DNA of 64,000 bases from a virus (Duplodnaviria > Heunggongvirae > Uroviricota > Caudoviricetes), in IMG/VR virus record IMGVR_UViG_3300039208_000529, positions 112,443 through 176,442 of that record. The stretch is one strand, 5' to 3'. The position numbers were made by a program, and so were the translations under genes. The notes under the pieces were generated by a model. The model was given only the letters and a program-made list of their open reading frames with translations, was not told the origin of the DNA and ran no database searches. Below, one piece after another: positions 40,535-41,017 of this stretch (position 1 is its first letter; each line of letters starts with the position of its first letter).

Positions 40535-41017
40535 TTATACACTATCATGCTGTCTTGTCAAGCTATTTTTAGCCATCCTGTCGTACATAACCATACTGCC
40601 AACGGCAGAGACATTAAAGCAGTGGCTTGATGGAATATAGATTTTATGTTGACATCTTTCCAGCACAGACGGAGGGATCCCGTGATCCTCAGCACCTAAA
40701 AGATAAATAGCTCTTTCTGGATGTTTAAAATTTACTAAGCTTTGGGCATCATCTGTGATCTCGACAGCTACCAGTTCTGCAAATGGGATTGAGTAGTTTA
40801 GCTCATTTACAGTCTCAAAGCGTAGGTATGGCATGTGCCGCCACGACTTCATGGTATCTGAATGCTGCCTGATGAATTTCGTAGTAAATCGTGGAGCAAC
40901 GGTAAAAAAATAAGATGCACCAAAGATGTTGGCTGATCGCCACAGAGTGCCGCAGTTTTGGTGTTTCTTTGGATGATAAATACCTATGCCAAAGAATCCG
41001 CGTTGCTGTTTTTCCAT
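40535..41017 (-). CDS. minimal SPOUT RNA 2'-O-methyltransferase (TrmL/YibK-like)
   Basis: IYHPKKHQNCGTLWRSANIFGA N-terminal motif; YLLGAEDHGIP and IYIPSS..NVSAVGSMVMYD SPOUT motifs. 160 aa with no extra domains. Confidence 0.7.
   Translation of the reverse strand: MEKQQRGFFGIGIYHPKKHQNCGTLWRSANIFGASYFFTVAPRFTTKFIRQHSDTMKSWRHMPYLRFETVNELNYSIPFAELVAVEITDDAQSLVNFKHPERAIYLLGAEDHGIPPSVLERCQHKIYIPSSHCFNVSAVGSMVMYDRMAKNSLTRQHDSV

Follow-up and report, generated by a model that had tools for sequence, protein, structure and literature searches.

A compact SpoU/TrmH-class RNA methyltransferase gene beside a tRNA(CUA) gene in a Caudoviricetes phage

Described SPOUT RNA 2'-O-methyltransferases of the SpoU/TrmH class differ in target and in architecture. 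TrmH (SpoU; E. coli b3651; PDB 7EDC, 1V2X, 1ZJR) makes Gm18 in tRNA, and its N- and C-terminal extensions contribute to tRNA binding. TrmL (YibK; E. coli b3606; PDB 4JAK and others) makes Cm34/Um34, while RlmB (YjfH) makes Gm2251 in 23S rRNA and, like RlmP, RlmR, AviRb and TsnR/NshR, carries an N-terminal L30e-like substrate-binding domain. The C-terminal domain of the very large eukaryotic protein TARBP1 (PDB 2HA8), the human counterpart of yeast Trm3, is a tRNA Gm18 methyltransferase (bioRxiv 10.1101/2023.06.14.544902). Here we analyze a phage gene of this class, a 160-aa open reading frame (ORF) that lies in a 64,000-nt stretch of DNA from a Caudoviricetes virus (IMG/VR record IMGVR_UViG_3300039208_000529, positions 112,443 to 176,442); we refer to this entire stretch as the window. 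A sequence-only reading of the window had placed the product in the TrmL/YibK subfamily and proposed two phage-encoded tRNAs as its substrates. Our data make orthology with TrmL very improbable. The protein falls in a distinct SpoU clade, without a characterised member, of bare SPOUT domains of ~145–155 aa with a conserved segment of their own. We lean, with modest confidence, towards a dimeric 2'-O-methyltransferase that acts on host and phage tRNA and whose position beside a tRNA(CUA) gene is incidental.

The methyltransferase and its clade

The gene and its conserved elements are listed below. Residue invariance was assessed in an alignment of 30 family members.

40535..41017, minus strand: SPOUT methyltransferase ORF, 160 aa, ATG start, TAA stop
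40931..40978, minus strand: SpoU motif 1, residues 14–29 (YHPKKHQNCGTLWRSA), with invariant N21, G23 and R27; aligns with motif 1 of TARBP1 and E. coli TrmH
40829..40891, minus strand: clade-specific segment, residues 43–63 (R43 ... Q51-x-S-D54-T55 ... H61-x-P63), defined in the alignment of 30
40673..40711, minus strand: SpoU motif 2, residues 103–115 (AIYLLGAEDHGIP), predicted S-adenosyl-methionine-binding knot loop with invariant E110
40577..40633, minus strand: SpoU motif 3, residues 129–147 (PSSHCFNVSAVGSMVMYDR), knot loop and helix with invariant N135 and G140

The Pfam family SpoU_methylase (PF00588) covers residues 12–145 with 70 bits, against a cut-off of 29.7 (E = 3e-19), and the alignment spans positions 5–142 of the 142-position profile, i.e. 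the whole domain above the curated threshold. Taken with the 462 homologues (~50% identity) recovered in a search of 5.8 billion proteins, this E value places the match far beyond chance, and the ORF almost certainly encodes a SpoU/TrmH-class SPOUT RNA 2'-O-methyltransferase. PF00588 was the sole hit in a Pfam scan at E values up to 1, which returned no L30e-like SpoU_sub_bind domain. Only 5 residues precede the SPOUT core, and neither end carries an RNA-binding extension. Hence the earlier description of a minimal, single-domain SPOUT methyltransferase of 160 aa was borne out. Contigs from three independent samples encode exactly this protein and, to judge from its motifs, the enzyme is intact and probably active.

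Conservation is concentrated in four blocks. In motif 1, R27 is the presumed catalytic residue. The invariant positions of motif 2 are Y105, L107-G-A-E-D111 and G113, and the knot motifs read Y105-LLGAEDHGIP-115 and C133-FNVSAVGSMVMYDR-147. Between motifs 1 and 2 lies the clade-specific segment, in which R43, Q51, D54 (usually within S-D-T), H61 and P63 are invariant. The predicted model probably has the SPOUT fold, with confidence dropping in residues 43–63 (predicted local distance difference test scores of 58–72). Neither BLASTP nor hhalign aligned these residues with E. coli TrmL, and the Q-x-S-D-T ... H-x-P pattern is likewise missing from TARBP1. This segment may form an RNA-contact loop.

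The assignment to TrmL/YibK had been based on an N-terminal Y-x-P-x4-N-x-G-x3-R block and the two knot motifs. All of these are present: the phage protein has the literal pattern Y14-x-P16-x4-N21-x-G23-x3-R27, and E. coli TrmL has the identical one (Y7-E-P9-EIPP-N14-T-G16-NII-R20). However, P16 occurs in just 10 of the 30 aligned members, and N21, G23 and R27 alone are invariant in the N-terminal block. Since N-x-G-x3-R is the generic SpoU motif 1 and P16 is not conserved, Y-x-P is no marker of TrmL. The bare, extension-less architecture is the sole TrmL-like property of the phage protein that holds up.

Subfamily models gave low scores throughout. On the phage protein, the NCBIfam equivalog for TrmL (TIGR00185) scores 23.7 bits against a cut-off of 190.6, that for TrmH (NF008295) 23.9 against 227, and the RlmB models (TIGR00186 / NF008386) 18.8 against 160.15. 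By these scores the protein falls outside the TrmH and RlmB equivalog families as well as that of TrmL. Using the MG1655 sequences as references, BLASTP aligned 46 residues around the knot motifs with TrmL versus 132 residues with TrmH, and hhalign gave TrmH 95% probability over 132 columns versus 70% over 43 columns, again at the knot motifs, for TrmL; the stretch of TrmL that follows motif 1 is unrelated to the phage protein. When the family profile was searched against all PDB sequences, the TARBP1 methyltransferase domain scored highest (55.7 bits), followed by E. coli TrmH (39.7), Aquifex TrmH (35.2) and RlmB (30.2); TrmL chains ranged from 27 down to 13 bits, with E. coli TrmL at 15.2. 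The nearest characterised relatives by profile and structure are thus the TrmH/TARBP1 group, with small margins over other subfamilies in the structural searches. Membership in the TrmL/YibK subfamily is contradicted by these data, even though the automatic annotation of the Joint Genome Institute (JGI) names the identical protein TrmL. For cellular homologues, the RefSeq name is just 'RNA methyltransferase', and other annotators use tRNA Gm18 or rRNA methyltransferase.

The likeness to the Gm18 enzymes has limits, and the phage protein is at most a candidate member of that group. Identity is 21–22% to the TARBP1 domain and ~20% to TrmH. TrmH and the phage protein share the motif-1 Asn/Arg as well as motifs 2 and 3, and hhalign covers TrmH residues 27–164 of 229; the phage protein has no counterpart to the TrmH flanks. 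Likewise, the TARBP1 domain is part of a very large protein, whereas the phage enzyme is free-standing.

The clade is widespread and enriched in phages. Against 1.84 billion cluster representatives, an exhaustive HMMER search found 1,739 matches at E < 1e-3 and 825 at E < 1e-10. Of the 462 homologues from the protein search, most measure 144–160 aa, and among the 120 matches listed, nearly all are 141–187 aa long and 44–56% identical to the phage protein. Relatives were found on at least 191 IMG/VR viral contigs and in more than 432 genomic stretches, the latter mostly from Bacteroidota (Crocinitomicaceae, Flavobacteriaceae), with further carriers in Thalassotalea, Akkermansia, Henriciella, Nocardia and others. 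In a neighbour-joining tree of 164 sequences, the nearest neighbour was of the same kind (viral or cellular) for 140, so that the two kinds are mostly separate, and 12 of the 15 closest relatives of the phage protein are viral.

Among catalogued phages the enzyme is rare, in keeping with the earlier remark that phages seldom encode a tRNA wobble methyltransferase. PHROGs holds no family for the methyltransferase or for its three upstream neighbours, and PADLOC likewise returned none. Just 4 of 50,697 phage records match the clade, and one of these is an isolate, Mycobacterium phage WXIN; giant viruses of eukaryotes supply the only 2 matches in BFVD. No relevant account of a phage SpoU/TrmH enzyme was retrieved in literature searches, partly because the term 'SpoU' also catches 'Spounavirinae'. 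The WXIN product (WPH57748.1, 'RNA methyltransferase, TrmH family') is 38.7% identical over 92% of the query. Like the enzyme of the window, this SpoU protein is small and free-standing, and its phage carries RNA-repair genes as well; WXIN, however, is an Omegavirus of mycobacteria, a different host lineage, and the 8.4-kb stretch examined has no annotated tRNA gene.

Longer, eukaryote-like relatives (P0134, P0166, P0172, P0178, P0184, P0200, P0224, P0246 and others) show ~45% identity in the SPOUT domain and add a conserved, beta-rich N-terminal domain of ~100 aa that has no Pfam match and is evident in the AlphaFold2 model of P0178. Some of them carry a further C-terminal region of ~350 aa. 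A TYW3-like C-terminal domain was detected in at least two (27.0 and 15.7 bits); a Pfam scan of the longer relatives for fusion partners found none apart from this threshold-level match.

The neighboring tRNA(CUA) gene and wobble methylation

ARAGORN called ten tRNA genes in the window. Three elements bear on the proposal that the methyltransferase modifies phage tRNAs at the wobble position.

40450..40525, minus strand: tRNA(CUA), loop C32-U33-C34-U35-A36-A37-A38, encoded CCA end, 9 nt downstream of the ORF stop codon
40534..40561, minus strand: perfect sigma-70 consensus promoter (TTGACA, 16 nt, TATAAT), 12/12 match
35252..35336, minus strand: tRNA-Leu(CAA), loop CUCAAAA (C34, A35–A38), the other candidate considered, ~5 kb from the methyltransferase gene

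Both the position of the ORF beside a suppressor-like tRNA, with 9 nt between stop codon and tRNA, and the presence in this phage of tRNA-Leu(CAA) together with a C34 tRNA(CUA) are as previously described. The anticodon stem of the tRNA(CUA) is unusually weak (G27-U43, G28-U42, A29-U41, G30-C40 and a C31/A39 mismatch).

The promoter falls within the final eight codons and stop codon of the ORF, and 8 nt separate its –10 element from the tRNA 5' end. It is the sole perfect sigma-70 match in the window, where 0.08 would be expected by chance. Residues 151–160 of the phage protein, a C-terminal tail that is private to it (relatives stop near residue 150), can be explained as translation of the promoter sequence. 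Because the promoter stands directly before it, the tRNA(CUA) looks like its own, nearly leaderless transcription unit; it is probably independent rather than a dedicated partner of the methyltransferase. As a separate observation, such a –35/–10 promoter points to a host that uses promoters of this type, unlike Bacteroidota.

To assess the adjacency, we examined the loci of 160 relatives, half of them on viral contigs and half in bacterial genomes. No tRNA gene was found within 500 nt of the relative at any of the 80 viral or 80 genomic loci, and within 5 kb one was found at 7 viral loci and 1 genomic locus. Considering 10-kb flanks, tRNA genes occur at 11 of the 80 viral loci (37 tRNAs in 1.35 Mb) and at none of the remaining 69. 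With ten tRNAs among ~121 ORFs in the window, roughly one gene in six would lie beside a tRNA by chance. Given the absence of a tRNA within 500 nt in all 160 relatives, the separate promoter, this chance expectation and the fact that the neighbors do not recur, the adjacency of methyltransferase and tRNA(CUA) is most likely incidental.

Two related ideas were set aside. One was a general link between this SpoU clade and suppressor tRNAs. Beyond the window it could be traced to one viral and one genomic locus and is a weak lead: a 175-kb viral contig (IMGVR_UViG_3300032893_000003; loci L069/L228) carries a pair of predicted tRNA(CUA) genes, at L069 positions 1138–1211 and 3003–3079, which lie 3.9 and 1.9 kb upstream of its SpoU relative and the first of which overlaps a 388-aa ORF and is doubtful, and a genomic contig (L093) has a tRNA(UUA) near its relative. 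Comparison of the tRNA(CUA) genes of L069 with that of the window revealed no specific relatedness. The other idea was TAG recoding as the reason for carrying tRNA(CUA). TAG serves as the stop codon of 23 of the 121 ORFs, and standard-code ORFs account for 92% of the window, so that recoding which would call for a suppressor finds no support here.

According to published work, recognition by E. coli TrmL depends on a pyrimidine at position 34, a key A35, A36-A37-A38 and prior i6A37 (PMC4615657). In the same study, tRNA-Leu(CAA) with the A35U substitution, i.e. with a CUA anticodon, was not methylated by TrmL (PMC4615657). The tRNA(CUA) of the window has U35 and would therefore fail this determinant even for a true TrmL. 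Together with the promoter and with the lack of adjacency across 160 relatives, this argues against the proposal that tRNA(CUA) is a TrmL-type substrate. The loop of tRNA-Leu(CAA), CUCAAAA, would satisfy the determinants if the enzyme were TrmL-like.

Collectively, these data make it quite improbable that the protein is a TrmL-like wobble enzyme that forms Cm34/Um34 on tRNA-Leu(CAA) and tRNA(CUA) and so tunes decoding by phage tRNAs. That explanation draws on the single-domain architecture, the N-terminal block common to E. coli TrmL, the gene 9 nt upstream of a C34 tRNA, the fitting loop of tRNA-Leu(CAA) and the JGI name. Opposed to it are the equivalog score far under its cut-off, the rank of TrmL chains below TARBP1, TrmH and RlmB in the family profile, alignment with E. 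coli TrmL over just 43–46 columns at the knot motifs, the variability of P16 in the clade, the inactivity of TrmL on the A35U (CUA) tRNA, the 69 of 80 phage relatives with no tRNA gene within 10 kb and the promoter of the tRNA(CUA) itself.

Gene contexts of the phage enzyme and its relatives

Other features of the window are as follows.

23333..24397, minus strand: T4 Rnl1-type RNA ligase
26711..27985, minus strand: CCA-adding enzyme, PolyA_pol head (E = 1.5e-24) with RNA-binding and HD domains
32888..33889, minus strand: second RNA ligase, PF09414/PHA02142 type
36778..37302, minus strand: HD_4 (SpoT-hydrolase-like) protein, with homologues beside or near SpoU relatives in L004 and L231/L239
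38573..38998, minus strand: macro-domain protein, weak match
39950..40225, minus strand: PTH2-like ORF, weak match (15 bits versus a cut-off of 23)
40984..41649, minus strand: 221-aa protein without a family match, overlapping the methyltransferase start
41651..44434, minus strand: the upstream neighbors, a 505-aa AAA (MoxR/dynein-like) ATPase and then a 421-aa DUF2201_N putative metallopeptidase protein
44523..45671, minus strand: NMNAT-like cytidylyltransferase
45668..47134, minus strand: NAMPT
48001..48489, minus strand: NUDIX protein
48807..49520, minus strand: Metallophos phosphoesterase
51992..52065, plus strand: tRNA-like gene, reported by ARAGORN as 'tRNA-???' with the two-base anticodon aa

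From 23333 to 49520, the minus strand thus holds a dense set of RNA- and nucleotide-related genes, with five tRNAs interspersed. The methyltransferase ORF (40535..41017) and the ORF upstream of it (40984..41649) overlap by 34 nt. A CCA-adding enzyme and a PTH2-like domain had been reported on the strand of the methyltransferase; the former was confirmed, while the latter is a sub-threshold match only. Megablast of the region 38000..44000 against known phages gave no match.

Little of this context is conserved. Clustering of ~2,000 neighboring ORFs from the 160 loci identified no partner common to more than 10 viral loci, and none of the eleven proteins encoded beside the methyltransferase in the window has a homologue in any of these loci. 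Synteny is confined to Crocinitomicaceae chromosomes, where the neighbors are housekeeping genes (O-methyltransferase, ABC transporter, ttcA, rplI). In viral loci, the commonest neighbors are DnaB, SSB, DNA methylase and DUF5131; the contexts consist of small early and replication genes, at times with an integrase and a LexA-like repressor, and resemble early or replication modules of phages.

RNA-repair genes occur close to a small number of relatives. In Mycobacterium phage WXIN (L246), Pnkp is 1 kb downstream of the SpoU relative. In another locus (L208), Pnkp is 1.4 kb upstream and a tRNA-Lys(UUU) 4 kb downstream, and in a third (L231/L239), Rnl1, a Pnkp-like gene and HD_4 all lie within 6 kb. 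Such proximity was seen in only ~4 of 82 phage loci, a count for which there is no control set to gauge enrichment. In L004 (7574..8444), an HD_4 gene directly precedes and overlaps the SpoU relative, and its product is 36% identical to the HD_4 product of the window. This gene order echoes the spoT-trmH operon of E. coli (L248).

These contexts bear on the possibility that the clade acts on some other substrate, such as phage mRNA, small RNA or repaired RNA ends, or that the gene is accessory and plays no role in this phage. The lack of a conserved neighborhood in 160 relatives, the occurrence of the clade in variable early-gene regions of unrelated phages and the few relatives near repair genes (WXIN, L208, L231/L239) are all compatible with that idea. 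We nevertheless judge it improbable. The catalytic and SAM-binding residues (SAM, S-adenosyl-methionine) are invariant in phage and cellular members, which indicates a maintained enzymatic function; characterised SPOUT enzymes act on tRNA or rRNA, with one protein-methylating exception (PMC5372735, PMC9508554, PMC3763551); and co-location with repair genes is limited to the ~4 phage loci noted above.

Candidate targets and roles

Which RNA might the enzyme methylate? Because tRNA genes are absent from the vicinity of most phage relatives, the conserved substrate is expected to be a host-supplied RNA. Four considerations favor tRNA. The nearest solved relatives by profile, TARBP1 and TrmH, are Gm18 enzymes; the L30e-like N-terminal domain of the RlmB-type rRNA enzymes is lacking; some eukaryote-like relatives carry an added TYW3-like tRNA-modification domain; and the phage has ten tRNAs, a CCA-adding enzyme, two RNA ligases and an HD_4 hydrolase. 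From these comparisons, and by analogy with characterised enzymes, we infer the following outline. The enzyme would work as a homodimer, like every characterised member of the SpoU/TrmH class. SAM would bind the C-terminal knot formed by motifs 2 and 3 (E110, N135), and the 2'-OH of a single nucleotide within a folded RNA would be activated by R27 together with N21, yielding a 2'-O-methyl ribose. The target would be tRNA of host and phage alike, possibly the tRNA core, as for the Gm18 enzymes, and the modification might serve to stabilise or protect tRNA during infection.

The principal alternative is that the enzyme methylates host 23S or 16S rRNA and thereby alters or protects ribosomes, on the model of RlmB (Gm2251), RlmP/RlmR (A-loop) or the antibiotic-resistance enzymes AviRb and TsnR. 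We regard this as possible yet distinctly less probable than action on tRNA. As ribosomes are present in every host, it would suit phage relatives that lack tRNA genes, and some annotators call the cellular members 'rRNA methyltransferase'. On the other hand, an L30e-like domain of the kind found in RlmB, RlmP, RlmR, AviRb and TsnR is missing, tRNA Gm18 enzymes outrank RlmB in the family profile, and both the TYW3-like fusion in relatives and the tRNA-centred gene set of the phage point away from rRNA.

Several observations weigh against the tRNA proposal, two of which speak directly for rRNA. Among the 30 members, the RlmB model TIGR00186 was the only NCBIfam model matched by all 30 (best E = 8e-14), followed by TrmH (24 of 30; 8e-10) and TrmL (20 of 30; 1.2e-6), although the RlmB scores of all relatives, including the best, remain far under the 160-bit cut-off. 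In addition, a PDB sequence search with the eukaryote-like relative P0232 returned SPOUT enzymes only, and its best matches are 23S rRNA enzymes. The weak subfamily signals therefore disagree with one another. For the phage protein itself, an rRNA-specific group was not the best match, while RlmB was the most consistent weak match of its relatives, and we consider the outcome of the subfamily search equivocal. Furthermore, the TYW3 fusion depends on one score exactly at the Pfam threshold, and the tRNA-binding extensions of the TrmH type are absent from the phage protein. More generally, the RNA target is not readable from sequence, and the specificity of SPOUT enzymes is unpredictable from sequence or structural homology (PMC3763551).

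Another explanation, which we consider unlikely, is that the clade serves in phage counter-defense. By placing a 2'-O-methyl group 5' of a nuclease site in host or phage tRNA or rRNA, the enzyme would confer immunity to defense or toxin ribonucleases, since the modification would remove the 2'-OH nucleophile used by most toxins that cleave tRNA or rRNA. There is a bacterial parallel in Pnkp-Rnl-Hen1, which methylates repaired RNA and so makes it immune to re-cleavage (PMC4411300). The phage enzyme would represent a pre-emptive, SPOUT-based analogue of the Hen1 step. Three features suggest a fit with such a function: the two RNA ligases, CCA-adding enzyme, HD_4 hydrolase and ten tRNAs of the phage; the relatives near Pnkp or Rnl1 (WXIN, L208, L231/L239); and the presence of the clade on at least 191 viral contigs, most with no tRNA genes near the relative.

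To our knowledge, phages carry tRNAs and RNA-repair enzymes, and RNA-modifying enzymes are barely documented in them. Here, a compact clade of RNA 2'-O-methyltransferases without a characterised member is common to at least 191 viral contigs and many bacterial chromosomes. Identification of its target would reveal whether phages rewrite the chemistry of host tRNA or rRNA, and would also assign a role to the bacterial proteins whose sole name at present is 'RNA methyltransferase'. Should the target prove to be a nuclease cleavage site, the clade would represent a new kind of anti-defense; should the enzyme prove to be a Gm18-like housekeeping activity acquired by phages, the finding would be an ordinary one. 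The chemistry itself is ordinary, and the interest of the clade is that it offers a tractable test of whether phages rewrite host RNA modification.

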